Shown: positions 455-25,797, numbered from the stretch's first letter. The stretch: DNA of 32,000 nt from Promethearchaeum syntrophicum (GCF_008000775.2 NZ_CP042905.2:1050001-1082000); one strand, 5' to 3'. Numbers and translations: made by a program. The notes: generated by a model from the letters alone, not told the origin.

Positions 455-2692
455 ATGAGCACACAAGGAACTCCTAAGAAGAAATCATCCAAATCGAAAA
501 ATACTCAACTAAAATTGAAAGTTCAGGAAGCCCGCAAAAGAGACGTAGGACGTAGCATCATTCGATTAGACTCCGATTCGATGAAGCAATTATCTGTTAA
601 TACGGGAGAAATTATTGAAATAAAAGGAAAGGAACGGACTACTGCTGCAATAGCATGGCCTTCCTACCCTCAAGACCAAGGATTGGGCATCATTCGTATT
701 GATAGTCGCGTACGGAGAAATGCTAATGTAAAAATCGATGATTTCGTCAATGTAACAAAAGTAAAAGAAGTTACCTCAAAATCAGTTATTCTTGCCCCTA
801 TTTCATTAAAAATAACTCCAAATGTTCGATTCGAGAGTTTTGTTAAAAGAAAATTACTTAATTTTCCAATTTCTAAAGGTGATTTAATTTATATTAACAT
901 TGGCATGACCAAGGAAATCGTATTTCGAGCAATTTCAATTAAACCTGCCGGGATCTCTATTATTAAACAAACAACCCAACTGTCAATCAACGAATCTACT
1001 TCAGAAGAAATCCCAACGGGAATTGCTTATATCACTTATGAGGATATCGGTGGGTTAGATAATGAGATTCAGCAAGTGAGAGAAATGGTCGAACTTCCAT
1101 TAAAACACCCTGAGCTTTTCATACGCTTAGGAATTGATCCTCCTAAAGGTGTTCTATTACGTGGACCTCCTGGATGTGGCAAAACTCTTCTAGCAAAAGC
1201 AGTCGCTAATGAAAGTCGTGCTCATTTTATTTCTATTAATGGTCCTGAAATTATGAGCAAATTTTATGGTGAATCTGAGAAGAAATTAAGAAGTTTGTTT
1301 AAGGAAGCGGAAGAAAAGGGACCTAGTATTATTTTTATCGATGAAATTGATGCGATCGCTCCTAAACGCGAAAATGTTACTGGTGAAGTTGAACGTAGAG
1401 TAGTGGCACAACTGCTTGCTTTGATGGATGGCTTAGAAACTCGAGGCAGGGTTGTTATAATTGGTGCCACGAATCGACCTAATGCTGTGGACCCCGCATT
1501 GAGAAGACCCGGACGTTTCGATAGAGAATTAGAAATAAAAGTCCCTGGGGAAAAAGGAAGATTAGATATCATCCATATTCATACCCGTAAAATGCCTTTA
1601 GATAAAGATGTTGCCCTACGCGAAGTTGCCCGAATAACCCATGGATTTGTAGGTGCAGATATTGCAAGTTTAGTTCGCGAAACTGGAATGTATGCCTTAC
1701 GTAGGTACCTTCCAAACATCAATTTAGAGGAGGATGATGTTGATCCTAAAATCCTTGAAAATATGTTTGTTGAAAAGAAAGATTTTGATAACGCCTTTAA
1801 GGAAATTATCCCATCAGGAATTCGTGAGGTCTTTGTTGAGATCCCAAGTGTTCATTGGAATGATGTTGGAGGATTAGATTATACAAAACAACAATTAATC
1901 GAATCAGTAGAATGGCCCATTAAAAACCCTGCTGCTTATATGAGAATGGGTGTGTCTCCTCCAACAGGTGTTTTATTGTATGGTCCACCTGGTTGTGGAA
2001 AAACTTTGTTAGCTCGAGCAGTAGCCACTGAGTCGGAGGCAAATTTTATATCAATTAAAGGACCGGAATTGCTTTCAAAATGGGTAGGTGAAAGTGAAAA
2101 AGCTGTTCGGGAAGTTTTCCGGAAAGCTAAATTGGCTGCACCGTGTATTATTTTCTTTGATGAACTTGATAGTATTGCTCCACGTCGTGGAAGTGGTGGT
2201 TCTGATTCAGGAGTAACTGAACGAGTGATCTCTCAACTTTTAACTGAATTGGACGGACTCGCTCAGACAAAACAAATAATTCTTATTGCTGCGACAAATC
2301 GACCAGATATAATGGACCCTGCATTAATGAGGCCTGGAAGGATTGATAGATTATCATATGTCGCCCCACCTACTGCCGAAGATAGAGAAGAAATCTTTAA
2401 AATTTTTACTAAAAGTATGCCTCTTGCTGATGATGTAGATATACATGATTTAGCCATGAGAAGTGAATTCTTCTCTGGTGCAGACATTGAATCGCTTTGT
2501 AGAGAAGCAGCAATTAGAGCGTTAAGAGAAGATATTAGGGGTGAAAAGATTGATTATAAACACTTTAAAGAGGCAATGGAGGATATTCATCCAAGTGCAT
2601 CACCTATGGTTTGTGAATTTTATGAGAAATTTGAAGAATCTCTTAAAAGCCGAAGAATTGGAAAACACAAGCGAACTGATTTATACGCATAA
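455..2692 (+). CDS. cdc48: CDC48/VCP/p97-type double-ring AAA+ ATPase
   Basis: 745 aa. CDC48-like N domain ([15 protein letters not shown]...[15 protein letters not shown]). Two AAA modules, each with Walker A GPPGCGKT, Walker B IIFIDEID / IIFFDELD, and RPGRFDR / RPGRIDR second-region-of-homology arginines. C-terminal ...DLYA resembles an HbYX tail. Confidence 0.95.
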
Positions 2693-3129: not shown

Positions 3130-4893
3130 TTAACTATCTTCTTTAAGCTCAAATGTATCCAATTCTAAGAAATTTTCTTGAATAAAGATCGGTGAAATCT
3201 TTGTTATTGGCTGTTTTGAGTTATTGAAAACATCCTTATTTAAGTATTTCTGACACATTTCAGATATTGATTTTTCTCCCCGGGGATTGGGTAGCTCTCT
3301 TTTTCTAATTTTGGTAAAAATTGGATAATTTAAGGCTGCACCCATTATGAGAGCATTACCCGTAGGTAATGTGCTAATTATTTCGATTGAACTATTTGTT
3401 AATGCTTCTGATGTCTGCTTTATATGGTTAAGATCATAGGGATTTGTGATTCTCATCACTATTTGAGTATTGCATTGCGATAAGGCTGTTGTACTCAGTC
3501 GGACTGGACGTTGAGAGACAAGAACTAATTGAGCAAAAAATTTCCTTCCTTCTCGTGCAATTGTTTCAAAAATATTCTTTGTAATTGCATCTTTTCCACC
3601 TGATTCCGGTAGAAAATTATGCGCTTCTTCAAGAAAAATTATAAAAGGGGGTATTTTTCCGCTTCTGCGATAATAAAATACTTTTGAAGTTAGGTAATGG
3701 AGTAAAATCTGTTTTTTTCTCATCGAAATTATTGATGATAAATCTAGTATAGTTAACTCACCCATCTTTATCAATTCATAAATAGAAGGTGAACTTTTTT
3801 TGCTAAAAATTCTTAAATTGTTTAGATCTGCTAACCAACCAATCAAAGTTGATTGTAATTTTGAATTAATATCAGGATTTTCTGATAGTTCTGTAATTAA
3901 GTCATTGATATCATATCCTATTAAAGTACCATCATCTGCTGACTTTTCACTCTTTTTAAATTTTTTTCTGCAATTTTTAATTGCTTTTCGAAGTTCACGT
4001 AATTGTGGGATAGAAATACCTGGTTGATAACGTTTAAAATCATATTCTGTCAAGTCTGGGACTCCAATTTGAATAAATAATCCATTAAAACTTGTGATTC
4101 TATTTTGGATTGATTTCATAGAGGAAATTTTTGATTGTTCTAATTTTTCAAGAGAATCCTCGGCTTTTTCTTTTAAAAAACGATATTCTCCATGAAGATC
4201 TACAAGAAACATTGCGGGAGTTCCCAGATCTTTTGGGCGTGTAAGAAGTTCTTCAAATAAAACCGATAAAAGATAACTTTTTCCCGCTCCTGATTGTGCT
4301 AAAATTGCTACATGTTTATTAAAAAGACGATTCATATTCAATGTAACATCAAGCTTATAACTACTTAACTTTCCAATATTTAACCCGTTTTCATCCAAAC
4401 CTAAAAAATGTCTAAGAAAATTTCCTTTTAAAAGGAAAACTTTATTTCCGGGATTTACGGGAAATCCTACTCTTTGTATTCGTTTGAAAGTAGCAGGATC
4501 TATTTCATCAGAAAGATTGTTTTTGCAACGAACTGTTCCTAAAAGATGAACATCGACAATATGACACTCCCATTGATCGCTAGGAAAGAAGTTTTTCATG
4601 TTAACCTTCGCAAGATTGAAATTTTTTACCGTTTGAACATTGGAAAAATATTGGTTATTCATTCTTATCTGCTCAACTATACCTACTACGAAGCCTTCAT
4701 GTGATTCTACTAAACAATATTGGCCTTGTTGAACGAATGGTGAATTTTTTGAATTGGATACAGACTGATTATCTGTAAGAATGAAAGAATATTCAAATAT
4801 ATTAGGAGATAAGTTATTAGATCCCGATATTACAATGCCGATTGGTTCAATTTGAGGTACTGATTTTGAAGTAAGAACTTTACGAAGTGTCAT
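3130..4893 (-). CDS. HerA-like / DUF87 (COG0433) FtsK-HerA superfamily P-loop ATPase
   Basis: 587 aa. Walker A AQSGAGKSYLL, Walker B-like FIIFLEEAHNF, and the block REGRKF..LVSQRP..LSQCNTQIVMRITNPYD typical of HerA/DUF87. The beta-rich N-terminus is consistent with a HAS barrel. No NurA-like neighbour. Confidence 0.85.
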   Translation of the reverse strand: MTLRKVLTSKSVPQIEPIGIVISGSNNLSPNIFEYSFILTDNQSVSNSKNSPFVQQGQYCLVESHEGFVVGIVEQIRMNNQYFSNVQTVKNFNLAKVNMKNFFPSDQWECHIVDVHLLGTVRCKNNLSDEIDPATFKRIQRVGFPVNPGNKVFLLKGNFLRHFLGLDENGLNIGKLSSYKLDVTLNMNRLFNKHVAILAQSGAGKSYLLSVLFEELLTRPKDLGTPAMFLVDLHGEYRFLKEKAEDSLEKLEQSKISSMKSIQNRITSFNGLFIQIGVPDLTEYDFKRYQPGISIPQLRELRKAIKNCRKKFKKSEKSADDGTLIGYDINDLITELSENPDINSKLQSTLIGWLADLNNLRIFSKKSSPSIYELIKMGELTILDLSSIISMRKKQILLHYLTSKVFYYRRSGKIPPFIIFLEEAHNFLPESGGKDAITKNIFETIAREGRKFFAQLVLVSQRPVRLSTTALSQCNTQIVMRITNPYDLNHIKQTSEALTNSSIEIISTLPTGNALIMGAALNYPIFTKIRKRELPNPRGEKSISEMCQKYLNKDVFNNSKQPITKISPIFIQENFLELDTFELKEDS

Positions 4894-5000: not shown

Positions 5001-5024
5001 AAATGTTGCCATATGGAAACATTT
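5001..5024. promoter_or_regulatory. Near-perfect 24-bp palindrome (AAATGTTGCCAT|ATGGAAACATTT, 11 of 12 arm positions) abutting a TATA-like TTTATATA at 5022-5029; candidate operator/promoter of the 5063 operon
   Basis: Read directly from the sequence. The TATA-like box is about 35 nt upstream of ATG 5063. The palindrome lies in the divergent intergenic region between the HerA-like gene and the operon. Confidence 0.45.
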
Positions 5025-5062
5025 ATATATTTTTACACTATATTTTTTTTGATTAAGAAATT

Positions 5063-6433
5063 ATGACACCCAGAGATCAAGAAAAAATAAGAGAAATTCC
5101 AATAAGTTTACGAGGTATCGAATCAATACTACGTGTTTTAAATAATGAACTTAAGGAGCCTTCTAGTATTAGACAAATTAGTGAAATAACTGGTCTTTCA
5201 ATGCGGGTAGCTAAAAATATTTTAATGCAATTAGAAAATCTTAAACAAGTGGAACGTGTAGTTGATAGGGGTCAAATATTGCCAAAATGGGGTTTAACTA
5301 GATTAGGTAAAGAAAATGCTAAAGCCATTGAAAAAAGTTCCAATGGTTTGAATAAAAACCCAAGTAATAGATTATCAGATCTATTATTAAATAATATTCA
5401 AATACCGAAAAATGTAGAGGAACAAAATATAAAGATTGGAGCGATCCATCGAAATTTCCTAAAGATATTAGATAAATTAAAATTAAATCTGAGTAAATCT
5501 ATGGGTATTTGTTATAACCTGGAACAACCGATTTTTGCCGAACGAATGGGTAATCTAATTAATAAATTAAAATCAATTAAAACCAATTTTTCGAGTTTCC
5601 GGGTAAATCCATTATCTTTCTATGATTTACATAAAAAAGGAACTAAAAAGAAGAGTTCGGCTCGAAAAAAGAAAGATTTTATTTCAGAAATTTTGTTTAT
5701 CAATCAAATTTTGCTTAATCAGCTTAATAATATCTCAGAATTAGAATTAGAGTTAAGTAATGTACTCGAACAAGAAAATTATAGATTATTTAATGAGATC
5801 TATAGACAGATCACAGATCAAATCAGGATTTTGAATTACTCGCTACAAAAAAGAACTAATGTTGATGATGGTATTCATATTCTTACTGAAGATGAATTAA
5901 TGCTCCTCCAAAAAAATGAAATTCGGCTAAGTTTCCTTAAGAATTTCATACCTCCAATATTACAAGATAATAGAAAAGAAGAATTGCTAAAAGAATGCCT
6001 CTTATCACTCATTTCTGATTTATTAGCCGAGAATTCAAAAAATTATAATAAACCATATAATATCCCTCTGGTTTCATTTTATGAATTAGCTAAAGACCAA
6101 TGTAAGTTTACAGGTTTTTCTGTAGAGAATTTGGAAGAGACACTAATTCAAATTGCTGAAAATGGTTTAATTTCCGGTATAATTGAAATTCAAGATGATG
6201 AAAACCATATTTTCAAAATTGTTCAGTTGAAACCATATGATGTTTCGGTCGATGAAATAAAACTTCTTCGATTAGCGATTCATTTAAAATCTTTTTCAAT
6301 GGCGGATGTTATGGAAAAACTAGATTGGAATCAATCGAAAGTCGAAAAAATTCTTCAAACTATGACAAATAACGGATTACTCAGGCATTCCAAATCATAT
6401 TTACAAGGAGATAAATGGTATATATTAATGTAA
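5063..6433 (+). CDS. Hypothetical 456-aa protein: N-terminal MarR/TrmB-like winged helix, long helical middle with a Lys-rich patch, two C-terminal winged-helix-like repeats
   Basis: N-terminus SIRQISEITGLSMRVAKNILMQLENLKQVERV is wHTH-like. C-terminus has ...LEETLIQIAENGLISGIIEIQDD... and ...SFSMADVMEKLDWNQSKVEKILQTMTNNGLLRH.... It is the first gene of the operon. No family recognised. Confidence 0.7.
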   Translation: MTPRDQEKIREIPISLRGIESILRVLNNELKEPSSIRQISEITGLSMRVAKNILMQLENLKQVERVVDRGQILPKWGLTRLGKENAKAIEKSSNGLNKNPSNRLSDLLLNNIQIPKNVEEQNIKIGAIHRNFLKILDKLKLNLSKSMGICYNLEQPIFAERMGNLINKLKSIKTNFSSFRVNPLSFYDLHKKGTKKKSSARKKKDFISEILFINQILLNQLNNISELELELSNVLEQENYRLFNEIYRQITDQIRILNYSLQKRTNVDDGIHILTEDELMLLQKNEIRLSFLKNFIPPILQDNRKEELLKECLLSLISDLLAENSKNYNKPYNIPLVSFYELAKDQCKFTGFSVENLEETLIQIAENGLISGIIEIQDDENHIFKIVQLKPYDVSVDEIKLLRLAIHLKSFSMADVMEKLDWNQSKVEKILQTMTNNGLLRHSKSYLQGDKWYILM

Positions 6434-6452: not shown

Positions 6453-7349
6453 ATGTTTAGAAAGAAAAACGGCAGTATTGGTAAAGATCGATTTCCATCA
6501 ATTATATCATGGACCCAAGTTGAATCAAAAGATAAAAATTCCCAATTGATTTATTGTTATCCGAGACAGAACGATAATATTAAGAAAGGAAAATTCTTTA
6601 ATGTGAAAGAGCATGAACGTGCCATTTATTTAAAACATGGGGAATTGATTGCGGAACTGAGTGGTGGAACCTATGAATTAGAGAAAAAATCTCGAGTTAA
6701 GGGTACAGAGATTATTTGGTTTGACACTTCAATGCATCAAATCTTTTGGGGGATCCCGAAAATCAATGGTATTCCTAGTCGAGATGGTTTTATATTTGGA
6801 ATGTTTGGAGATCTCAAATTAAATATTTATAATGTTAACATTTTCTACAAGTACGTTATTGGGGGCAATAAAGAATGGTCTTTACAACAAATGAAAGATT
6901 GGATAATCAGTCTTTTTCATGTAGTTCTCCGGGATATCTTTAAAGAATATGATATTTCAGAAATATTCCAAGAATCTCGAGATATAATTATGAATAAAGT
7001 TGTTTCAAAAGTATGTGAAGAAATGAACCTGTATGGATTGGAGTTGGACGCATTTAATATCTTAGGCTTTAAACCTCCAGATAATGCGAAAGAGATTCTT
7101 AACTCTAAGCAAGAACAAGCCTATCGATTTAAGAATTGGCTTGAAAATGAAAAAAAGCGAGATATCGAAGATCGAATTTTTATTCAATATCGGATCAAAT
7201 CTTTAAAGAGTCGTCTACAAGGGCTTCAAAACGATTTGCTGGAAAATAAAATCACCAGGGAAGCATACGATTCCAAGCGCCAAACTATCAATGAGTTTAT
7301 AGAAGAAGCAAATTCTGAATTGGAACCTGACAATAGATATGAAAAATAA
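6453..7349 (+). CDS. SPFH/Band-7 superfamily protein of the YdjI/COG4260 type with a C-terminal coiled coil
   Basis: 298 aa. The N-terminal pattern (IISWTQVESKD...LIYCYP..NDNIKKGKFFNVKEHERAIYLKHGELIAELSGGTYELEK) resembles COG4260 SPFH proteins. The C-terminal heptad-like region is KNWLENEKKRDIEDR...LQGLQNDLLENK. GGAG lies 8 nt upstream of the ATG, and the gap to the previous gene is 19 nt. Confidence 0.7.
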   Translation: MFRKKNGSIGKDRFPSIISWTQVESKDKNSQLIYCYPRQNDNIKKGKFFNVKEHERAIYLKHGELIAELSGGTYELEKKSRVKGTEIIWFDTSMHQIFWGIPKINGIPSRDGFIFGMFGDLKLNIYNVNIFYKYVIGGNKEWSLQQMKDWIISLFHVVLRDIFKEYDISEIFQESRDIIMNKVVSKVCEEMNLYGLELDAFNILGFKPPDNAKEILNSKQEQAYRFKNWLENEKKRDIEDRIFIQYRIKSLKSRLQGLQNDLLENKITREAYDSKRQTINEFIEEANSELEPDNRYEK

Positions 7350-7369
7350 TATTAAGGAGAAAAAACAAA

Positions 7370-10300
7370 ATGAGAAATGGAAATAAAAATAGAACACTTA
7401 GTCAAATTACACTAATTATACTAGGAATTTGTATCATTCTTATATCAAGCATTGAAACTCATGCATCATATAATAATCCTGCACAAAACCAAGAGAAAAA
7501 TATTGAAATAAAAGCAGCAACGTTTCTTATTTCACATGACCCAATTCGAATAGATGGTAATAATGCATTAGAATCTTTTTGTGCTGGAAATGGAACTGAT
7601 GGCCTATCTTGGGAAACTGCCTTTAAAATCGAAAATTATTCAATTATTTCAGGAGAGGAATCGGGAATTTCTATAAATAATACTGATAGATTTCTAATAA
7701 TTAACAACTGTTCGATTGAAAATTTTTGGGATACAAATTATGGTGCTACTGATAATGGGATTAAAATTCTAAATTGCTCAAATATTAAAATAACGGATTG
7801 TTCTTTGACAAATAACACATTGGGGATCTTTTTAGACTCATCAACCGATATTACTTTAATCCAAAATAATTGTTCACATAATGATTGGGGATTTACCTTA
7901 TTGCGCTCCGAAAATAATACCCTATTTAATAATACTGCATTATATAATGAACATGATGGAATTAGAATATGTGAAGGTGACTATAATAATATTACTTCTA
8001 ATGTTGCTAATTTTAATTATCAGAATGGTATAAATATTGCTTCACATTTTCCTCATATTGGTTATGCACATAGTTATGGGAATTCCATTGTGAATAATTT
8101 ATTAATGCAAAATCAAGATGATGGTATTCAAATAGAATATTCTGATTCTAATTCAGTGTTAAATAACTTTGTATTCAATAATGGAAATTCTGGAATTAGC
8201 TTACAAGATTCTTCTCAGAACATTTTATCACTTAACGTAATAGATAGAAATAATAACGAAGGAATTGAAATTGAAGATGGATCTAATTGGAATTTGATTA
8301 CAAAAAATAAAATTAGTAATAATAGTTACGGAATCATGATCAGTCTTTCAAGTTATAATACTATTGGAGAAAACTTGATTGTCAATCATAGTCATAATGG
8401 GATTTTAATTTTTCATATGTTTGAAGATCATTTAGAGCAAAATATTTATGGAAATACTTTTGAAAATAATTCAGGAAATATAGCATATATACAAGTGAGT
8501 TCTGGCCGCTATGAACCCCCCTATGAATATATTGGTCTTGCAGTTTTAATTATTGGTATCGTAATCTTTCCACTTATTTATAGAAAAAAAATAAAAAAAA
8601 ATTTGATTGAGAGTGATTCCAAATTAATTTATAAAATTCTTAAAATTGCCCTTTGGATATCAATAGTTTTCACTATGGCAATATTGATTTTTGTTAGCTA
8701 TGGAGCACCAATTTTTCTGGTCGATATTCCAATTTTGATTATTGTCCTATTGGTTTTGAATCGAAAAAAAATAACAAAGCGAAGGAAAAAATTCATTGCT
8801 GAGCGTGAAATTAAGAAAAGCGAACAAAAAATTGCTAAAGCGAATAAATCTAAAGAAGCAATTGAAGAGAAGAATGAAAAACCCATTAAATCTAAGAAAA
8901 AAAGTTTAAAATCTTCAAAAATTTTGATAAAAAATATGAATCGGAAAGATTCTAAATTAATTAATAAAATTCTTAGAGTATTTTTATGGTTTGTTATGGT
9001 ATGTCTATTTATACTTCTCAGTATCTTTACACTTGGAATATTTGATATTATTGTGATCATTATTTTGATTATTTATAATAAAAAGACCAAATATTATTTT
9101 AATAATTTAAGATCCAATAAATTCATTAAAAGAGGTCAAAAGAGAACTATAAAAGCCATAAATTATGCAAAAATGCATTATTATAAAAAATCCCGATATT
9201 ATTGGTTAAGGTCGGAACGAAATTATCATCGAGCTCTAAGAATAATACCAGATTTTCATAAAATTGATTTTCTTGAGAAAAAAATAATTTCCATTAAACA
9301 GAATACATTAGCTACCTATCTATCTGAAGGGATTGTTTTAAGTAAAATTGCTTGGTTCCAATTTCAGGAAAATAACTTTTCCCAAGCAAAGAAACAATAT
9401 TCTAAGAGTATTACGTTAATTGAAGGAGTCTTAAAAAATATTGACACAGATTATGTTTTCAACCAAAAAGTAGAGTTTCCAATTACGGCCTCCTTAATTT
9501 TTGAAATTTTGCAATTTTTAAGGAAAAACACAGAACAAATTAAAAATAAAGCAAATTATAAAAACAAATCAAAGGTTTTTATAAAATCCAGTGATATACA
9601 AGAGATAAATGAGAAAATTGTTAAATCTTTAAAGGAAACGAATGAATCTTTATGGATTTATTGTCAATCTCTTGACTCTTATGAGGATTTAATCAATTTA
9701 GAAGGATTATCGAATCTATTGGAAAATAAATTAACAAAATCAGAAAAGATGTTGTTATCCGCTCAAGACCAAATGCAATATTTATTAGCATACATGCAGA
9801 GATCAACCAATAGATTTGAGAGAAAGGGTATTGAAACAAAATCAATAGCGATGAATAAAAACCGCACTTCGGAACAAGAAAGATTTGAAAATAAACATCT
9901 GAATATTATTCGAGAATATGAATATATCGGAGGTAAAATTCGCTTGAAAGTTGGTATTGTGAATCATTCAGATAATGTACTAACAAATTTAGCTCTAAGA
10001 TTCGATTTACCTGATGCTTTAAAGTGGATTATCCATGAACCGAACTTAAAACGCAGAGGTGATACGATTCATATTGCAAGGTTGGGAGGAAATGAAAAAA
10101 TAGCCATATCTCTTTATTTGGAGCCTATCAACTGTTTAGAAAGTATGATTAATGCAACTTTAACCTATTTTGATTCAAAAGATCAACCTCAAGCAGTTAT
10201 TATGACACCGAAAAAAGTTTCGATATCCTGTCCAATTTTCTTTACACGAGAAGAAGCCAACATAGCGCGTGTAAAAAAAATACAATTGCAACTGAAATAT

Positions 10301-10771
10301 GAAGATCATAAAATTTTCCCACTGGTTAAATCGAATAAATCTGAGTTAATTTTTAACAAAATACTAGGCTCTATTGGAAAACATGATGTCAAATTAGTTC
10401 AAAAAGAATTCTCACTTGACAATAACAAGGGTGAAGCATATTTCTATGGAGTAACCAAAGTGAAGAAGGATAAAATGATAATTCATTTAATATTGGATTC
10501 AAATCATCAAATTATTGAAATATCCGTGAATGGCGATGAACAAGAACCTATTACAGGGCTGCTTGCTGAACTTGAAAGCGAAATTCGCGATAAATTGCTT
10601 GTTCATAATATCATTGAAGATTCTGATAAATTCCATGATATTAATACATCAATTCTTTTGGGGAATTGTCCTTTTTGTAACGGTCCCATTTCACAAAGTA
10701 ATATTGCATTTTTCAAGAAAGGAGAAACGATATCATGCAAATATTGTGATACTACTTTAAGTCCCTATTAA
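7370..10771 (+). CDS. 1133-aa multidomain membrane protein: signal/anchor, extracellular parallel beta-helix (PbH1/CASH/NosD-like repeats), 5 further predicted TM segments including a duplicated TM hairpin, Lys-rich linker, large cytoplasmic region, C-terminal CxxC-x19-CxxC zinc ribbon
   Basis: N-terminal hydrophobic segment LSQITLIILGICIILISS. About 12 repeats of roughly 22 aa of the form N.s.N..GI.l..s..N.i..N between aa 85 and 375, carrying about a dozen N-x-S/T sequons. TM segments at about aa 388-404, 422-466 and 533-569. C-terminus CPFCNGP...SCKYCDTTL. AAGGAG lies 10 nt upstream of the ATG. Confidence 0.85.
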   Translation: MRNGNKNRTLSQITLIILGICIILISSIETHASYNNPAQNQEKNIEIKAATFLISHDPIRIDGNNALESFCAGNGTDGLSWETAFKIENYSIISGEESGISINNTDRFLIINNCSIENFWDTNYGATDNGIKILNCSNIKITDCSLTNNTLGIFLDSSTDITLIQNNCSHNDWGFTLLRSENNTLFNNTALYNEHDGIRICEGDYNNITSNVANFNYQNGINIASHFPHIGYAHSYGNSIVNNLLMQNQDDGIQIEYSDSNSVLNNFVFNNGNSGISLQDSSQNILSLNVIDRNNNEGIEIEDGSNWNLITKNKISNNSYGIMISLSSYNTIGENLIVNHSHNGILIFHMFEDHLEQNIYGNTFENNSGNIAYIQVSSGRYEPPYEYIGLAVLIIGIVIFPLIYRKKIKKNLIESDSKLIYKILKIALWISIVFTMAILIFVSYGAPIFLVDIPILIIVLLVLNRKKITKRRKKFIAEREIKKSEQKIAKANKSKEAIEEKNEKPIKSKKKSLKSSKILIKNMNRKDSKLINKILRVFLWFVMVCLFILLSIFTLGIFDIIVIIILIIYNKKTKYYFNNLRSNKFIKRGQKRTIKAINYAKMHYYKKSRYYWLRSERNYHRALRIIPDFHKIDFLEKKIISIKQNTLATYLSEGIVLSKIAWFQFQENNFSQAKKQYSKSITLIEGVLKNIDTDYVFNQKVEFPITASLIFEILQFLRKNTEQIKNKANYKNKSKVFIKSSDIQEINEKIVKSLKETNESLWIYCQSLDSYEDLINLEGLSNLLENKLTKSEKMLLSAQDQMQYLLAYMQRSTNRFERKGIETKSIAMNKNRTSEQERFENKHLNIIREYEYIGGKIRLKVGIVNHSDNVLTNLALRFDLPDALKWIIHEPNLKRRGDTIHIARLGGNEKIAISLYLEPINCLESMINATLTYFDSKDQPQAVIMTPKKVSISCPIFFTREEANIARVKKIQLQLKYEDHKIFPLVKSNKSELIFNKILGSIGKHDVKLVQKEFSLDNNKGEAYFYGVTKVKKDKMIIHLILDSNHQIIEISVNGDEQEPITGLLAELESEIRDKLLVHNIIEDSDKFHDINTSILLGNCPFCNGPISQSNIAFFKKGETISCKYCDTTLSPY
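8615..8770 (+). repeat. Intragenic duplicated module, copy 1 (DSKLIYKILKIALW... TM hairpin ...NRKK)
   Basis: Protein and DNA similarity to copy 2. GATTCCAAATTAATTTATAAAATTCTTAAA versus GATTCTAAATTAATTAATAAAATTCTTAGA; DSKLIyKILkiaLW versus DSKLInKILrvfLW. Confidence 0.6.
8948..9085 (+). repeat. Intragenic duplicated module, copy 2 (DSKLINKILRVFLW... TM hairpin ...YNKK)
   Basis: See copy 1. The copies are separated by a Lys/Glu-rich linker (KRRKKFIAEREIKKSEQKIAKANKSKEAIEEKNEKPIKSKKKSLKSSK). Confidence 0.6.
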
Positions 10772-10812
10772 AATTGTGAAAATGGGAAGATATTACAAGC
10801 TCGTTTCTTTTA

Positions 10813-10825
10813 TTTTTTTATTTTT
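10813..10825 (+). terminator. T-rich tract (T7 A T5) downstream of the 1133-aa gene
   Basis: TTTTTTTATTTTT read directly about 40 nt after the stop at 10771, in a convergent intergenic region. Confidence 0.3.
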
Positions 10826-10848
10826 ACTTTTACTTAGATCCTAATCAG

Positions 10849-11607: not shown

Positions 11608-12267
11608 TTATGCAGAAATTGGTAAATTGTTTACTTGATTGAATTTTCTACCACAATGTTCACAAAATGTATATTTGTTCTCTGTTAACATAGCTTTCAT
11701 TTTTGGTGTGAATTCTTCTCCACAATCTGTGCAGAAAAACTTTACTTCATTGTGGGATGAAGTTTTTGGGTGAGAAACAATCATTGTTCTTGAATTTAAT
11801 TCCTCAGATCTAGAAGTATATTCAGGTTGATTTACCCGAACTGTCTTCATTTCTTTAGGTCTTGTGACAACATATTTTCGAGGTTGATGATGATGCTGAT
11901 GATGATAATGATAGATTTTTTTATGCGTCTCTTCTTTGAACAATTTAGGATAGAATACATGAACAATTTGTTTTAAATTTGAAAGATAATTATCAACAAT
12001 TGTTGCTATGTCTTCTCCCCTTGAAATCAGTCCAATGGGCGCAGTTATAAATACAACAATTAATGTATAGAACATAATTGATAATCCCATAAAGGTTGCT
12101 TTCAAAATTTCAATAGTCAACAGGAAGGTTAATTTTAAAATTTCAAATGTAAACCAAATTGACAAAATCGTTATAACAATTGCAAGAATTAAACCAATAA
12201 TTCTTGTTTCTAAACCACCGCTTAAAAACCAGTTTTCAAGCGTATTCCATGAGTAATCGAGTATCAT
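11608..12267 (-). CDS. Membrane protein with a cytoplasmic His-rich tract and a C-terminal CxxC-x19-CxxC zinc ribbon
   Basis: 219 aa. Hydrophobic N-terminal half with at least 2 TM segments. YHYHHQHHHQ tract. C-terminus FCTDCGEEF...FCEHCGRKF. Confidence 0.7.
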   Translation of the reverse strand: MILDYSWNTLENWFLSGGLETRIIGLILAIVITILSIWFTFEILKLTFLLTIEILKATFMGLSIMFYTLIVVFITAPIGLISRGEDIATIVDNYLSNLKQIVHVFYPKLFKEETHKKIYHYHHQHHHQPRKYVVTRPKEMKTVRVNQPEYTSRSEELNSRTMIVSHPKTSSHNEVKFFCTDCGEEFTPKMKAMLTENKYTFCEHCGRKFNQVNNLPISA

Positions 12268-12497: not shown

Positions 12498-14531
12498 CTA
12501 TCCTTTTATCAAGGAGAATTCGTAATCAGCTAACCCAATTGTAGGACTAACTAATAGATAACAAAATTCTTCTGGTTCGACGAATCCCGCTAGATCAATT
12601 GGTGATTCTAATGCATTTTCTAGTTCACTCAATGTGAAATATATAATATCATGGTATTCCATCCCAAGGTCCGTTTCAACAGCTGTGATCATAGTGACAT
12701 AAAAATCAGTTTCAGCAGGTGGTGGTACTATGAAAGAAATAAGTCCATCCGCATCGTCGATTATTTCACCATTAAGTGCTATGTTATCCACCCACCAACC
12801 TGGATCTTCGTATCCCCAATCAGTCATATAACGGAATTGTAATTGAACCACTTGACCAGCATATGCAGAAAGGTCAAAACCCATGTTGATCCAACCTAGT
12901 GAATCACCACACAATCCAGGTAATTCTTCAGCGATGGCAGGATAACCTTCGTCCTCGATATCATAAGTCGTATATTCATTTGCTAAAGATGTCCAAGTAG
13001 TACCATAATCAGTGGAAATTTGCACAAATCCATAGTCCCAATTTGGTTCAATAATATATTTAGTGTCGAAACTAAACAAAGGTGAAGCACCATAGGCTGA
13101 CAAGTTAATTTCTGTATACAATTTAATATCACTCTCTGGAGCAGACGGAGTTGAATAATATTCGAGGTCGCCATCACCATCTTCATCAACTAATTCCCAT
13201 GTTGCCAAAGTGGCATAATTATCACCATCAAAATCAAAAGTGGTTATAAAACGATCATGAATGTTGCCCAATTTAATATAATCCGTTCCATAAGAGCCAG
13301 TCATATAAAACCCTGTTTTATCTTGGAGATAACTCACTGTTTCTCCCAATTCAACCCCCGTTACTGTATCATAGGGTTTATTTATATTGTATATCCGGAG
13401 ATAATCTACTGTGTTTAAATCAAACATCTCGTAATTGTACTTTCCATCGCCTATGGAATCGGTATGGAGTAAATTCGCAATGGTCCAATCGAGATAAATG
13501 TCCTCAAATTTTTCCGTATAACCAAAATGTGATAACGTATTCTCAATCCCTGCTACATCTGGAATTCCCGCTTGCACAAAATAACTTAGAAATTCAGCTC
13601 CAAAATGATCCGCTAGATATGCTGCCCACATGAAGGCTTGTCCATAATCCGCGAGAATATTCAAACCTCCTTGATCTCCCCATTCTGTTAGTGAATTGTC
13701 GGGAGTAGCCAAAAAGGCTTCGATATCACCCCAAGGGATATTATACCCGCACAATGGTTCAGCAAACATGGAGCATCCTTCATTCATCCATGATCCATCC
13801 AAAGGGTTATAATCATCATGAATTAAATGTTGATATTCATGGGCAAGTGTAGGTGCATAAACTGTTTCTTTTCGATTAGCAAAATCAGCCGAATCAATGG
13901 ATACGATATTGCGATCAAAAGCATCTTCAAATACTCCCCAATAAAATCCAACAACATAATATGGATATTGTTGATCGTAATATCCCTCATCACGAATGTT
14001 GGAAATCAGAATTACATTACGTCCGGTGGGTTCGAGGTAGAGATCTCCTAAAATGGAATCACTTCCGTTATGGAAATTAGGTGTTCCGAAATATTCGGTA
14101 TCTTTTGGATAAATATTGCTTTCAAATTCAGCTACAAACCATTCGGCGTCTTCAGTAGTAACAACAGGTGTTTCTCGTGAATCTGGATAGCTCATATCAA
14201 TTTGTACCCAAACTTCCGAAAGGTTACCTAGTGCCATTAATTGAAACGCATCGACAATTATTCCCCCTTCAGCATTGTCATCGCTGACATACCATTCCAA
14301 GGTATCTCCTACTAAGTAATAGGAATCACCAGAAGACTGTGGTGAGATACTAAGACTTGATGTCATTGGATATTCTGATATTTTTCTAGAGCGCAGTTCG
14401 GGACCCGCATCATAGGGTTTTTGTTCGACATATTCGGTATTCGGTGAGAGTAATGAGAAACTTGTAATTCCCCCAAAAATTCCTCCTACTATGATCGTTA
14501 CCAATAATATTGGAAAATATTTCGATTTCAT
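12498..14531 (-). CDS. Secreted zinc metalloprotease, M6 / immune inhibitor A (InhA)-like
   Basis: 677 aa. N-terminal signal/anchor KYFPILLVTIIVGGIFGG. HExxH in TLAHEYQHLIHDD followed by WMNEGCSMFAE, as in M6 peptidases. Acidic, Lys-poor mature region. Confidence 0.8.
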   Translation of the reverse strand: MKSKYFPILLVTIIVGGIFGGITSFSLLSPNTEYVEQKPYDAGPELRSRKISEYPMTSSLSISPQSSGDSYYLVGDTLEWYVSDDNAEGGIIVDAFQLMALGNLSEVWVQIDMSYPDSRETPVVTTEDAEWFVAEFESNIYPKDTEYFGTPNFHNGSDSILGDLYLEPTGRNVILISNIRDEGYYDQQYPYYVVGFYWGVFEDAFDRNIVSIDSADFANRKETVYAPTLAHEYQHLIHDDYNPLDGSWMNEGCSMFAEPLCGYNIPWGDIEAFLATPDNSLTEWGDQGGLNILADYGQAFMWAAYLADHFGAEFLSYFVQAGIPDVAGIENTLSHFGYTEKFEDIYLDWTIANLLHTDSIGDGKYNYEMFDLNTVDYLRIYNINKPYDTVTGVELGETVSYLQDKTGFYMTGSYGTDYIKLGNIHDRFITTFDFDGDNYATLATWELVDEDGDGDLEYYSTPSAPESDIKLYTEINLSAYGASPLFSFDTKYIIEPNWDYGFVQISTDYGTTWTSLANEYTTYDIEDEGYPAIAEELPGLCGDSLGWINMGFDLSAYAGQVVQLQFRYMTDWGYEDPGWWVDNIALNGEIIDDADGLISFIVPPPAETDFYVTMITAVETDLGMEYHDIIYFTLSELENALESPIDLAGFVEPEEFCYLLVSPTIGLADYEFSLIKG

Positions 14532-16719: not shown

Positions 16720-17643
16720 ATGAATTCTGAAGAAAAAAATATTGGAGATCCAATGGTATTTGATAATTCAGAAGATGATCTTGATTATAATATAGAAGAA
16801 ATTTACAAAAAGTTACAAAATATTGGCTCTTTTACAATAAATGATTCAAAAATTTATGTTACACTTTTAAAAATTGGATTGTCTAACCCTGCTGTTATTT
16901 CAGAGAAAAGTAAAGTTGATAGAGCTAGGGTTTATGATTCACTAAAAAGATTAGTAAAAAGAGGAATTGTTGAAGAAGAACCTGTGAAAAGAGCACCTCG
17001 TTACCGAGCTTTTCCTCCAGATGTAGTTTTTGGCACAATAAGAAAAAAATTGAATAACCAAATTAACCTGGCAACTTCTTTAGAAAAACAGCTAGCTCAA
17101 ATAAAAACAGAATCAACTGAAAAAAATTCCGTTTGGTCTATTCAAGGGAAGCATAAGATCAATAAGAAATTTTACGAAATTATCCAAAATGCTGAAGAAT
17201 TTTGCTTTATCTTCCTAACTTTAGACTATTCTATAAGTTCAATTAATGAATTAGAATTATTAGAAGGTGTAATAATGGAAAAACTTCGATCTAATCCTTC
17301 ACTAACCATTAAAATTGCATTAAAAATATTCCCGGAAAAAGATGATCAGAAATCAATTTTAAATAGATTATTCCATGCAAATATTGAAATTTTTCGCTGG
17401 AAACCAAAAAGTGTGCTTCCTTTTGGCTTAATTCTTACAGATTCTGAATTTATGCAAACATTCTTGAGTGGAACAGTACCAAAGCCTATGTATGAATTTG
17501 GAATTCTAATGGAAAAAGCTGGACAGGATCAGTTAATGGGATTTAAACATCTCTGCATCTGGGTTTTTTATCAATTGTGTAAAAAGTTGGTTTTTACGAA
17601 GACCCAAAGAAATATTCAAATTGAGGGCGATGATGATGAATAG
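16720..17643 (+). CDS. TrmB-family transcriptional regulator-like protein
   Basis: 307 aa. After an acidic N-terminal extension, YVTLLKIGLSNPAVISEKSKVDRARVYDSLKRLVKRGIVEE matches the TrmB wHTH pattern. The C-terminal domain is of TrmB-like length. Confidence 0.75.
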   Translation: MNSEEKNIGDPMVFDNSEDDLDYNIEEIYKKLQNIGSFTINDSKIYVTLLKIGLSNPAVISEKSKVDRARVYDSLKRLVKRGIVEEEPVKRAPRYRAFPPDVVFGTIRKKLNNQINLATSLEKQLAQIKTESTEKNSVWSIQGKHKINKKFYEIIQNAEEFCFIFLTLDYSISSINELELLEGVIMEKLRSNPSLTIKIALKIFPEKDDQKSILNRLFHANIEIFRWKPKSVLPFGLILTDSEFMQTFLSGTVPKPMYEFGILMEKAGQDQLMGFKHLCIWVFYQLCKKLVFTKTQRNIQIEGDDDE

Positions 17644-17745
17644 AAAAATAAATCTTAAATTGGATAACTCAGAAATAGGTATAAACTACCCAAAAACTTT
17701 TATATTTTTTAAAATTTAATTCAAATGGCTTAAGAGGTAAAATTA

Positions 17746-18285
17746 ATGGATTACAAATGTAAAATGAGCATTATAGGTGATGAGAACGTTGGAAAAACCT
17801 CCATAATTCTAAGATATTTAAACAACACATTTACAAATCAATATATAACCACTCTAGGGGCTGATTTCGTTGATAAAGTATATTTTAAATCTGATCTTCC
17901 TTCTCTTAACCCAGAAGATAGTTTAACAGTAACAATTTGGGATTTAGGAGGACAAAAATCCTTTCAAGAAATATCTACACTATATTGCGAAGGATCTGCA
18001 GGCATTATGATTGTTTTTGATGTGTCTAATGTAGAAACTTTTAATTCGGTTCCAAATTGGATCGATTTCGCTAAAAATTGCTGTCCCAAGGCTCAATTAG
18101 TATTAATCGGAAATAAAAGCGATTTAGAATCGACTATAGATGCCGATAAGATTCGAAATTTAGAAAAGGAAATTGGGAGTAAAGTATATTTTAGTTCAGC
18201 CAAAGTGAGTTTAACAAACAAACTCTCAAATATCAACAATATATTTGAAAATATGGCCGAAAACTTATTGAAAATTTCGCGATAA
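17746..18285 (+). CDS. Small GTPase of the Ras superfamily, Rab-like
   Basis: G1 GDENVGKTS, switch I YITTLGADF (Rab-like IGxDF), G3 WDLGGQ, G4 GNKSD, G5 SSAK. 179 aa. No C-terminal Cys prenylation motif (ends LLKISR). GAGGT lies 9 nt upstream of the ATG. Confidence 0.9.
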   Translation: MDYKCKMSIIGDENVGKTSIILRYLNNTFTNQYITTLGADFVDKVYFKSDLPSLNPEDSLTVTIWDLGGQKSFQEISTLYCEGSAGIMIVFDVSNVETFNSVPNWIDFAKNCCPKAQLVLIGNKSDLESTIDADKIRNLEKEIGSKVYFSSAKVSLTNKLSNINNIFENMAENLLKISR

Positions 18286-23963: not shown

Positions 23964-24395
23964 ATGAATGTATTTGCAAAGGCATTAACAATTAAAGAAG
24001 CCTCCCAACTCGTTAGATCTATGAAGACTCCCAATGAAGTTGAGCAAAGAATTAACAAATTAAAAACTCTCTCTTCAATCAATGATTCTAAAAACAAATA
24101 CCACCTTTTAGGAAAATTAATAACTGAACTTCTTGCAATTTTTCCCAATACTATGCCAAAATTCTATCTAATAGAGAAAGGGGAAAAAGAATTTAGTTTA
24201 CAAGAAGAGTTTATAGAAAAAGTAATAGAAAACTTAAATAAAATCGGGCTAGTTCTTATAAATAAGATCGATAATAAAGTTGTTTTAAAATTTCCCAGCA
24301 TTCCGTTTTCAGCTATGAACGGGAAGCTTAATGTTTCACACCCAAACCCTATAAAAAATCGTCATGGAAGAAGTAAAAAAACCAAAAAGAAATGA
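23964..24395 (+). CDS. Hypothetical 143-aa protein with a basic C-terminal tail, immediately upstream of tldD
   Basis: The ORF ends 4 nt before ATG 24400 of tldD. It is preferred over antisense ORF 23894-24148. The in-frame upstream sequence encodes a Zn-ribbon-like CxxC...CxxC but has no canonical start (see findings). Confidence 0.5.
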   Translation: MNVFAKALTIKEASQLVRSMKTPNEVEQRINKLKTLSSINDSKNKYHLLGKLITELLAIFPNTMPKFYLIEKGEKEFSLQEEFIEKVIENLNKIGLVLINKIDNKVVLKFPSIPFSAMNGKLNVSHPNPIKNRHGRSKKTKKK

Positions 24396-24399
24396 TAAT

Positions 24400-25794
24400 A
24401 TGGAGCAAATTTCCTTAGAACCAAACGACCTGAGCTTTCTTCGTGATCTAGCTAATAATCAAGGTATTCAATATTTCAATGCTAGATTTACAAGCGGTCA
24501 AACCACATTATTCTCTTTACTTGATGGAATATCCAAATCCTCAAGCTCTGGGATTGGAAAAGGATTTTCCATCCAAGCTTACACCAGAGGAGGTTGGGGT
24601 CTCGCAGTTGGAAAAGATTTCACAAAGGCATCAATCGAAAGTATATTTATTAAAGCGAGTAAATTGGCAAAATTTAGTTCCAAATTTTCAAAAGGAAATT
24701 ATGTAATTAACCCGACTTCCAATTCTAAAATATATCATGAAATAAAACAAAAAATCCCTTTACTTTCAATTTCCCTTGATGAGAAAATGAAATTACTTCT
24801 CGATATTGAAAAAAATGCCCACATTGATTCCAGAATTGTATCTACTCTTATAAATTATTCAGATGGAGAGAGTGAGAAAATTACTTTCAATAATTTCGAC
24901 CAATTTATTAGAAGAAAAGAAAGCGGTTTACTACTTAATATGCAAGCAATTGCGAAGCAAAATGGAAAGCAAGAAGGCTATTTTCTGAATAAAGGCGGTT
25001 TGGGAGGTTATGAAATTTTACAAAAATCACAAAATATCGGTATAGAAGCAGCCAAAAACGCTTTAGAATTACTTGGCTCGAAACCTGCAAAACCTGGAAA
25101 ATTTGATATAATAATGGATCCTTCTTTAAGTGGTACATTTGTTCATGAAGCATTTGGTCATGCTGCTGAAGCCGATGGTGTAATCGCTGGGGAAAGTATA
25201 TTAGCGGATAAAATGAATAAGAAAATTGGAAAAGATATTGTTACCATTATCGATGATGGTTCAATCGAAGATCAATTTGGGTTCACACCTTATGATGATG
25301 AGGGTACTAAGGGCCAAAAAAATGTTATTGTAAAAGATGGTGTGTTAGTTGGTTTCATGCATAATTTGGAAACAGCTTCTAAAATGGGAGTAAAACCAAC
25401 AGGAAATGCCCGAGCTATGAATATTTCTAGTAGTCCACTTGTAAGGATGACAAATATATATCTAGAACCTGGAAACGCAACTTTAGAAGAAATGATTCAA
25501 GAAGTAAAAAATGGATTATTATGCGTTGGTTGGACTTATGGATATTGTGAAATAACGGGACAATTTATGTTTAAGATGGCAAAAGCTTATTTAATTGAAA
25601 ACGGAGAGAAAACACAAGTAATTAAAGATGCTGCTATAAGTGGGTTGACTTTATCGGTATTAAAACGTATAAAAATGCTGAGCAAAGATTATGAAATGGA
25701 TCCTGGTCATTGTGGGAAGGAAGGGCAATCAGTTTCTGTTGGAAGTGGCGGACCGTATACATTAATTAAAGATATGGTAATCGGAGGTCAATAA
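24400..25794 (+). CDS. tldD: TldD-family metalloprotease
   Basis: HExxxH metal-binding motif in FVHEAFGHAAEADG. About 465 aa. The ORF track start 24364 overlaps the upstream ORF; ATG 24400 (MEQISLEPNDL...) follows the upstream stop by 4 nt. Confidence 0.85.
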   Translation: MEQISLEPNDLSFLRDLANNQGIQYFNARFTSGQTTLFSLLDGISKSSSSGIGKGFSIQAYTRGGWGLAVGKDFTKASIESIFIKASKLAKFSSKFSKGNYVINPTSNSKIYHEIKQKIPLLSISLDEKMKLLLDIEKNAHIDSRIVSTLINYSDGESEKITFNNFDQFIRRKESGLLLNMQAIAKQNGKQEGYFLNKGGLGGYEILQKSQNIGIEAAKNALELLGSKPAKPGKFDIIMDPSLSGTFVHEAFGHAAEADGVIAGESILADKMNKKIGKDIVTIIDDGSIEDQFGFTPYDDEGTKGQKNVIVKDGVLVGFMHNLETASKMGVKPTGNARAMNISSSPLVRMTNIYLEPGNATLEEMIQEVKNGLLCVGWTYGYCEITGQFMFKMAKAYLIENGEKTQVIKDAAISGLTLSVLKRIKMLSKDYEMDPGHCGKEGQSVSVGSGGPYTLIKDMVIGGQ

Positions 25795-25797
25795 AAA

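Follow-up and report, generated by a model that had tools for sequence, protein, structure and literature searches.

The 1133-amino-acid (aa) membrane protein QEE15706.1 is encoded by the last gene (positions 7370..10771) of a putative three-gene operon in a 32,000-nucleotide stretch (NZ_CP042905.2:1050001-1082000) of the closed 4.32-Mb genome of the cultured Asgard archaeon Promethearchaeum syntrophicum MK-D1. This stretch, which has a GC content of ~30%, is hereafter called the window; positions are counted from its first nucleotide, and the features described lie on the plus strand unless marked otherwise. The protein joins a right-handed beta-helix through a membrane region to a large tail, whose predicted fold resembles the appendage ('ear') domains of eukaryotic coat adaptors. 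Its gene follows the genes for an SPFH scaffold protein and for a winged-helix protein with an ESCRT-II-like fold. The reading preferred here, to which we give about an even chance, is that QEE15706.1 is a membrane-anchored hub, the tail of which binds the SPFH scaffold, the ESCRT-II-like protein or both and in this way anchors, clusters or sorts the surface protein.

This reading starts from the fold of the cytoplasmic tail. A model of residues 575-1133 (559 aa) was calculated with AlphaFold2 (AF2) on an alignment of 44 close homologues (mean predicted local distance difference test score, pLDDT, 80.8; predicted template modelling score, pTM, 0.42) and consisted, in this order, of seven long helices, a disordered hinge, a beta-sandwich, a helix with a beta-alpha-beta4-alpha unit, and a zinc ribbon. 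The helices form a cytoplasmic stalk (aa 575-815, 9092..9814; model residues 2-241), the membrane-proximal part of which is TPR/MIT-like. Its profile matched consensus TPR proteins and, weakly, the MIT domain of Vps4A (1yxr, E 0.0019), and the Pfam matches of individual members to TPR_2 (8/12) and MIT (3/12) were all weak. An assignment of the stalk as a MIT domain was rejected, because the matches are weak and indistinguishable from TPR. The hinge comprises about 30 residues (aa 816-843, 9815..9898; pLDDT <50, model residues 238-267) and leads to an Ig-like beta-sandwich (appendage subdomain 1, aa 844-952, 9899..10225; strands at model residues 270-378), in which pLDDT values were mostly 83-92 with a single block at 78. 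An alpha/beta 'platform' follows as appendage subdomain 2 (aa 961-1078, 10250..10603), with the elements helix 387-400, strand 403-410, helix 414-429, four strands within 434-481 and helix 484-504 in the numbering of the model. The chain ends with a C4 zinc ribbon (10667..10747), recognised by the near-invariant cysteine columns C1100, C1103, C1123 and C1126 in the motifs CPFC (1100-1103) and CKYC (1123-1126). The zinc-ribbon part of the family profile was found in 94/185 representatives.

Comparison of the tail model with the PDB using Foldseek revealed two-subdomain appendages as all of the top 11 matches (E 2.8e-9 to 1.8e-7). The best match was gamma-COP of COPI (9qpq_H, E 2.8e-9), accompanied by AP2 alpha (2vj0, 1w80, 1b9k and others, E 5e-9 to 3e-8) and AP2 beta2 (1e42, E 4.5e-8; also 2iv9). 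These alignments extended over the full length of the appendages, with 244-255 columns on targets of 233-250 residues. At lower ranks, BBSome subunits with GAE and platform domains, TRAP-beta, MG domains of complement proteins and the GAE domains of GGA and gamma-ears were retrieved. In the predicted model (pTM 0.42), the Ig sandwich is directly followed by the beta-alpha-beta4-alpha platform, as the appendage fold demands. The module is described here as appendage-like by fold, and at the level of the fold only, because the link to adaptins at the sequence level is faint. Pfam gave no match above threshold in the cytoplasmic part, and among the members of the family weak matches to Alpha_adaptinC2 (PF02883; 7/15 members, best E 1.8e-4, or 2.5e-4 in a scan of the trimmed core) and to DUF11 (10/15) were obtained. 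Vps28-C and longin domains were detected neither by Pfam nor by Foldseek in QEE15706.1 or its module. The hinge is preceded by the membrane region and the TPR/MIT-like stalk instead of a HEAT-repeat trunk, and the open reading frames (ORFs) of the window include no genes for an adaptin trunk or for mu/sigma subunits.

The second line of evidence is the operon. Gene 1 (5063..6433; QEE15704.1, DSAG12_01531, 456 aa) codes for a protein whose AF2 model (pLDDT 84, pTM 0.69) shows a winged helix at the N-terminus, then a long bundle of helices, and a tandem winged helix at the C-terminus. The five best Foldseek matches were all chains of ESCRT-II (3cuq_A, 2zme_A, 2zme_B, 1u5t_A and 3cuq_B), aligned over ~200-236 columns. 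The protein thus possesses the helical part with tandem winged helices that is typical of ESCRT-II (Vps22/Vps36), at fold level only; Pfam and NCBIfam gave no ESCRT-II match, merely weak helix-turn-helix (HTH) matches. Gene 2 (6453..7349; QEE15705.1, 298 aa) codes for an SPFH protein (Pfam Band_7_1, 5.9e-11; Band_7, 5.3e-9) with a C-terminal coiled coil and without a transmembrane (TM) segment. All three genes have the same direction and are separated by gaps of 19 nt (genes 1 and 2) and 20 nt; AGGAG stands before genes 2 and 3, in the case of gene 2 at a distance of 8 nt 5' of the ATG. About 30 nt upstream of the start of gene 1, a TATA-like element (TTTATATA, 5022..5036) is a putative operon promoter, and an oligo-T tract after the stop codon of gene 3 (10803..10835, no strand assigned), located between convergent genes, is a putative archaeal terminator; both elements were found by reading the sequence. 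From this arrangement, the three genes most probably form one operon unit and are putatively co-transcribed. Two antisense ORFs (7215..7397 (-), 60 aa; 8698..9060 (-), 120 aa) overlap the operon. They were not accepted as genes and are very likely by-products of the AT-rich coding sequence, because their Phe/Ile/Leu-rich translations mirror the Lys/Asn-rich coding strand.

The order winged helix, SPFH and module recurs in the window and at the loci L003, L007, L009/L010, L011 and L013, which are all loci of this Asgard subclade with enough upstream DNA. An SPFH gene lies directly 5' of the module gene in 6 loci, and homologues of gene 1 occupy the same position in L003, L007, L009, L011 and L013; in L016 the SPFH gene lies downstream. 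The ectodomains vary across these loci, with a beta-helix in the window, fn3 domains in L003 and a polytopic protein in L007. Moreover, the relative P0007 is a direct fusion of SPFH, stalk and module without a TM segment, which provides a 'Rosetta stone' argument for a physical cooperation of both proteins. At the locus L003, a small Ras-like ORF and genes for leucine-rich repeat proteins were seen just 5' of the three genes.

The gene of QEE15706.1 itself is intact. The ORF starts with ATG, contains no internal stop codon and codes for the same sequence as QEE15706.1 and WP_147662608.1, a record named 'NosD domain-containing protein'. The architecture given in the preliminary description, namely a beta-helix of about 12 repeats, a TM segment, two TM hairpins, about 560 further residues and a zinc ribbon within 1133 aa, was confirmed by Pfam, by the repeat period and by hydropathy, and an N-terminal signal peptide or anchor precedes it. 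In related Promethearchaeum metagenome-assembled genomes (MAGs), each syntenic orthologue is one single ORF, with 1161 aa in L009 and 1249 aa in L011 and with the same flanking genes, and a distant relative of 909 aa (P0017, 35% identity) possesses a signal peptide, a beta-helix, one TM segment, a stalk and the module. As these orthologues and the distant relative keep the same single-ORF layout, a fusion artefact is excluded; the frameshift-joined pair considered in the preliminary description does not exist. Among the database homologues of the cytoplasmic half, the closest, P0001 (800 aa, on a 4.8-kb contig), starts just before the first TM segment and is devoid of the beta-helix. It aligns with the 1161-aa orthologue of the L009 type and resembles a gene call that was truncated rather than a short form that occurs naturally.

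Comparison with the orthologues showed the strongest constraint in the cytoplasmic module, whereas the ectodomain is free-running. Identities to L009 and L011 amounted to 59 and 57% in the ectodomain, 51 and 46% in the TM region, 77 and 65% in the stalk, 96 and 96% in the sandwich, 93 and 98% in the platform, and 89 and 89% in the zinc-ribbon tail; the hinge showed 43-60% and the N-terminal segment (aa 1-32) 73-90% identity. The module is thus under strong purifying selection.

The predicted topology places the two halves of the protein on opposite sides of the membrane. The first TM segment (TM1; aa 387-404, 8528..8581) runs from the outside to the inside and is followed by the motif YRKKIKK. 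Then comes a first TM hairpin (aa 421-463, segments 421-443 and 446-463; 8630..8758) with the short uncharged loop SYGAP, a Lys/Arg-rich cytoplasmic linker (aa 464-532, 8759..8965), and a second TM hairpin (aa 533-570, segments 533-553 and 556-570; 8966..9079). A net charge of about +12 was calculated across residues 480-560. A Pfam match to Sec20 in this Lys-rich linker (residues 476-549, 21.6 bits vs a cut-off of 27) was dismissed as compositional. The two hairpin units are mutual duplicates (local alignment score 100 vs 38 +/- 7 in shuffles); each of them (within 8528..9079) is composed of an amphipathic, Lys-rich lead-in and two short TM segments. Two such units occur in the window protein, two in L009 and three in L011 (L011 6157..9906), so that the total number of TM segments is always odd; the hairpin units were added as TM pairs among the orthologues. 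All loops rich in Lys/Arg are located on the same side as the C-terminal part, and both hairpin loops carry no charge. In the relatives P0017, P0006 and P0066 a single TM segment separates ectodomain and module, with three fn3 domains, one TM segment and the module in P0006, and the soluble relatives P0002, P0007 and P0044 have no signal peptide. Based on the positive-inside pattern, the odd TM counts, the single-TM relatives and the soluble relatives, the beta-helix is predicted to be extracellular and the module to be cytoplasmic. A location of both halves on the same side, which the preliminary description had named as the result that would speak against it, is at variance with the positive-inside pattern and with the odd TM count in every orthologue.

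The N-terminal segment (aa 1-32, 7370..7465) is a predicted signal peptide or N-terminal anchor, according to hydropathy and charge, with an n-region of +3 and an h-region at residues 10-28; cleavage would putatively occur at THA|S. The ectodomain (aa 33-383, 7466..8518) was identified as a right-handed beta-helix. Pfam matched NosD (4.1e-29) and Beta_helix (8e-28) over residues ~88-374, the sole Pfam matches above cut-off for QEE15706.1, and six stretches of para_beta_helix repeats (NCBIfam, TIGR03804) were found. Self-similarity was maximal at a period of 23 residues, which therefore indicates ~12 coils. It is probable that the beta-helix binds glycans or surfaces and that it is N-glycosylated. 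The dozen or so N-x-S/T sequons mentioned in the preliminary description are present (13), but its term 'glycosylation-rich' was an overstatement: 13 sequons in residues 31-383 compare with 9.7 +/- 2.6 in residue shuffles (p ~0.14). With 8 sequons in 558 residues, the cytoplasmic part has a ~2.6 times lower sequon density, and the Asn content of the ectodomain is 17.5%. Because shuffled sequences give similar counts, the density reflects the Asn composition and no specific enrichment.

Beyond the orthologues, the module belongs to a large archaeal family. For the cytoplasmic half, the 44 close homologues had differing N-termini, and their named sources were all Asgard archaea (Promethearchaeota, Lokiarchaeia, Thorarchaeota). 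At 50% identity, the module profile (A3) retrieved at least 954 clusters with E <=1e-3, of which 370 reached E <=1e-30, and genomes bearing the module were found in Promethearchaeota, Hermodarchaeota, Thermoplasmata, Methanobacteriota, Methanomicrobiales/Methanoregula and ANME-2. It nearly always forms the C-terminal end of its protein, the length of which ranges from 213 to 4911 residues. Of the 161 representatives that are complete, 64 (~40%) showed an ectodomain or loop with a length of 200 residues or more before one or more TM segments and the module; 31 were polytopic, 22 had 1-3 TM segments and a small N-terminus, and 44 were soluble. The ectodomains comprise beta-helices, fn3, CARDB/DUF11, beta-propellers, PKD and glycosidase-like domains, and a CHAT domain occurs in some soluble members. 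The layout of ectodomain, TM region and large cytoplasmic domain reported in the preliminary description holds, but such a coupling is nothing unusual in this family, the same layout being shared by 64/161 representatives. Searched separately, each half was found independently elsewhere: the module behind many different N-termini, and the beta-helix in P0214, which has the same type of beta-helix (42% identity) and merely a C-terminal TM anchor with an 8-residue tail. As each occurs without the other, beta-helix and module are independent modules that were combined.

A second, different genomic context of the family is represented by tandem pairs of polytopic paralogues with the same C-terminal module, which were detected in Thorarchaeota and other Promethearchaeota MAGs (L004 2606..7331, L018, L019, L021, L022 and L035). 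At these loci no SPFH or winged-helix neighbours were found. Further combinations were observed in distant members of the family. In P0115 and P0129 the module is joined to a CHAT caspase-like protease, and at L040 (5926..7779) to an FGE-sulfatase-like domain. P0137 (4911 aa) and P0151 (4052 aa) are giant surface proteins with the module at the end, and P0092 and P0115 carry, judged by eye, a Roadblock/longin-like sequence ahead of it.

According to the hub reading, the beta-helix would face outward at the cell surface of P. syntrophicum, and the TM segment together with the two duplicated TM hairpins would bring the chain to the cytoplasm. There, the TPR/MIT-like stalk and the flexible hinge would present the ear-like module, with the zinc ribbon after it. 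By analogy with eukaryotic appendages, the module might serve as a protein-protein interaction hub that binds partners, the likeliest of which would be the SPFH (flotillin/stomatin-type) scaffold and the ESCRT-II-like triple winged-helix protein of the operon. Acting together, the products of the operon might anchor the surface protein in the membrane, cluster it or sort it there, and the outcome would be membrane organisation or sorting.

Several observations weigh against this interpretation. The pTM of 0.42 and a root-mean-square deviation of ~11-13 A to the appendages make the relative placement of the subdomains uncertain. On the sequence level, QEE15706.1 reached 12.8 bits for Alpha_adaptinC2 vs a gathering cut-off of 27.6, a platform family of Pfam (e.g. 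Alpha_adaptin_C or B2-adapt-app_C) was not matched by any member scanned, and a search of PDB sequences with the module profile retrieved no adaptin. The similarity of gene 1 to ESCRT-II is modest (E 4.9e-4 for 3cuq_A to 2e-2), and its single winged-helix domains also matched MarR-type regulators in Foldseek. In addition, the association with SPFH and winged-helix genes is limited to one Asgard subclade, other subclades having the tandem paralogue pairs, and no ESCRT or SPFH genes were found among the upstream ORFs scanned at two euryarchaeal module loci (L040, L041). Genes for Vps4, ESCRT-III or Vps25 were likewise not found among the ORFs of the 32-kb window.

The preliminary description considered the layout to be that of a transmembrane receptor. 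Such an outside-in receptor would respond to a glycan ligand with a changed oligomeric state of the beta-helix, the tail would bind or release a winged-helix transcription factor, and the SPFH protein would modulate clustering. The sequence of ectodomain, TM region and large cytoplasmic domain fits this idea, as do the interchangeable ectodomains before a constant module, which are known from receptor families, and the three winged helices of gene 1 with their weak matches to HTH domains of the TrmB, IclR and Lrs14 type and the resemblance of single domains to MarR-family regulators. We nevertheless regard a receptor as unlikely. Neither Pfam nor NCBIfam revealed a recognised signalling output or transmitter domain such as a kinase, HAMP, MCP or cyclase. 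Over its whole length, the product of gene 1 matched subunits of ESCRT-II best in structure and not DNA-binding dimers, and many members of the family are polytopic, soluble or devoid of an ectodomain. The fold of the tail, a helical stalk with an appendage-like module, is that of an interaction ear and not of an enzyme, and therefore speaks more for an adaptor in anchoring or sorting than for signal transduction.

Cells of MK-D1 form vesicles or protrusions. A more far-reaching version of the hub reading, which appears rather unlikely to us, would see the operon as a self-contained, primitive cargo-sorting unit, in which a surface glycoprotein bears an ear of its own. This ear would recruit the ESCRT-II-like and SPFH proteins, which would cluster the glycoprotein and drive its packaging into such vesicles or protrusions, and it would be a true pre-eukaryotic homologue of the adaptor ears. 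If this were true, the cultured archaea most closely related to eukaryotes would already have a coat-adaptor ear that works at a membrane and is linked to cargo.

Only a small chance is given to the related idea that QEE15706.1 is a cargo adaptor of ESCRT-driven budding, analogous to ESCRT-0, in which stalk and appendage would recruit ESCRT-II-like and ESCRT-III proteins encoded elsewhere, and vesicles or protrusions would carry the surface protein. The ESCRT-II-like fold of gene 1, the weak MIT-like signal of the stalk and a published model for archaeal appendage proteins (PMC10936438) are in line with it. However, ESCRT-III and Vps4 genes are lacking in the window, the MIT signal is inseparable from that of generic TPR, and the resemblance of gene 1 to ESCRT-II is modest.

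A passive coat protein is a slim prospect as well. The beta-helix would then be part of a glycoprotein coat, with the tail as a plain anchor, for example to the cytoskeleton, that takes no part in sorting or signalling, and with functionally unrelated neighbours. A fast-evolving ectodomain (57-59% identity) with many sequons is expected for exposed coat proteins, and P0214 combines the same type of ectodomain with a simple C-terminal TM anchor; but a plain anchor would not need ~560 residues kept at 93-98% identity, the operon with SPFH and winged-helix genes is kept although the ectodomains differ, and SPFH also occurs directly fused to the module. Finally, a NosD-like periplasmic maturation factor (copper or sulfur delivery) or a fusion or frameshift artefact, as the Pfam NosD match and the database name might suggest, is effectively refuted by a score of 40.7 bits vs a cut-off of 300 for NosD_copper_fam (NCBIfam TIGR04247), by the lack of nosZ, nosF and nosY among the ORFs of the window, which leaves only the generic beta-helix fold in common with NosD, and by the single ORF kept in three related genomes and in the distant 909-aa relative.

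Forerunners of eukaryotic trafficking systems are sought in Asgard archaea. Here, a protein named only 'NosD domain-containing' unites a domain at the surface, a passage through the membrane and a cytoplasmic hub resembling an adaptor ear in an experimentally tractable, cultured species, and the operon offers a compact three-protein system for testing the genomic proposal of 2024 that archaeal appendage-like modules act as membrane-proximal hubs. The recognition of a widespread archaeal 'cytoplasmic tail' behind diverse ectodomains (at least 954 clusters) can also aid the annotation of large archaeal surface proteins.

Regarding the other genes of the window, a HerA-like DUF87 ATPase (3130..4893 (-)) is divergent from the operon and adjoins a CDC48 AAA ATPase (455..2692), which was identified by TIGR01243 (1006 bits) and is not Vps4. 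Both genes are syntenic in the close relatives L009 and L011 and absent beside the three genes in L003 and L007, and are therefore probably not part of the system. PADLOC gave no match for the SPFH protein and QEE15706.1, one marginal match for gene 1 (E 0.001), and matches of the DUF87 ATPase to generic HerA models only. A defence island, to which the HerA-like neighbour had given rise as an idea, was dismissed, as the three genes have no PADLOC match beyond this marginal one and HerA is not conserved beside them. Downstream of the operon, a 219-aa protein (11608..12267 (-)) with N-terminal TM segments, a His-rich motif HHQHHHQ and a C-terminal CxxC...CxxC zinc ribbon matched no family above threshold; syntenic counterparts are encoded in the related MAGs L009 (219 aa) and L011 (215 aa). 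A secreted InhA-like metalloprotease of 677 aa with a MAM-type domain and a HEYQH motif is encoded at 12498..14531 (-). A TrmB-family winged-helix protein (307 aa) and a small GTPase of the Ras/Roc/Arf type (179 aa), the gene of which is a characteristic signature of Asgard archaea, are encoded one after the other at 16720..18285, and an adjacent pair of TldD/PmbA metallopeptidase genes is located at 24364..27177.

In comparison to known systems, the tail shares with the ears of AP2 alpha and beta2 and of COPI gamma-COP (2vj0, 1b9k, 1e42, 9qpq_H) an Ig sandwich followed by a TBP-like platform, and the C-terminal position behind a flexible hinge of ~30 residues. Such ears bind short linear motifs (FxDxF, DP[FW], WxxF) in accessory proteins. 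They are attached to the HEAT-repeat trunk of a heterotetramer, whereas QEE15706.1 has a TM region with a TPR-like stalk and an additional C4 zinc ribbon, and shows no significant sequence similarity to them. Gene 1 resembles Vps22/EAP30 and Vps36 of ESCRT-II (3cuq, 2zme, 1u5t) in a helical region followed by tandem winged helices. It differs from them in an extra N-terminal winged helix, in the much longer helical bundle of the 456-aa protein, in the missing Pfam ESCRT-II match and in that Vps25, Vps4 and ESCRT-III do not adjoin it.

The beta-helix is of the right-handed parallel type with PbH1-like repeats behind a signal peptide, like that of the NosD/CASH-type surface proteins. Unlike these, QEE15706.1 has a large cytoplasmic extension, which the anchored protein P0214 does not possess. 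SPFH proteins are known from operons with partner genes, for example stomatin or flotillin with NfeD, and YdjI of B. subtilis, a member of the Band_7_1 family, with YdjG/YdjH and PspA. As in those operons, the SPFH gene directly adjoins the gene of a membrane protein with a soluble C-terminal domain, an analogy which suggests a pair of scaffold and client. In contrast to those operons, the partner lacks the NfeD OB-fold, no PspA gene is present, and the SPFH protein has no TM segment.

The full-text search of the literature found neither the protein accessions nor this operon and no further papers on archaeal adaptin appendages, the text matches being irrelevant ('adapting'), and a structure-based survey of Asgard proteomes from 2026 does not mention appendages. 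The closest counterparts were described by Makarova et al. 2024 (PMC10936438), who reported archaeal 'adaptin appendage regions' (IG + TBP) in ESCRT-linked loci and proposed that these proteins are interaction hubs for protein sorting, analogous to ESCRT-0. In the Methanosalsum loci, one appendage protein carries a Zn ribbon and one is joined to GOLD via a TM linker, and the loci also encode a coiled-coil SPFH protein as well as Vps22/36-like proteins with duplicated winged helices; Asgard proteins combining the appendage with Vps28-C and longin are also mentioned (PMC10936438). The latter domains were not detected here, which distinguishes QEE15706.1 from those Asgard proteins. By description, the operon agrees with the Meth_adaptin/Halo_adaptin systems (arCOG15284, e.g. 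WP_013898571.1; PMC10936438) in several features: genes for a coiled-coil SPFH protein and a Vps22/36-like protein with duplicated winged helices accompany IG + TBP and a Zn ribbon, and the appendage is TM-linked to an extracytoplasmic domain, which is GOLD there and a beta-helix here. The differences are the Asgard host, the NosD-type beta-helix with its TM hairpins, and the lack of Vps4 and of an ESCRT-III/PspA-family gene among the ORFs of the 32-kb window. Adaptin-appendage proteins encoded next to SPFH genes were hence already known from archaea (PMC10936438), and the operon fits this picture in its composition; new are the beta-helix ectodomain with TM hairpins and the cultured host of the Lokiarchaeial type.

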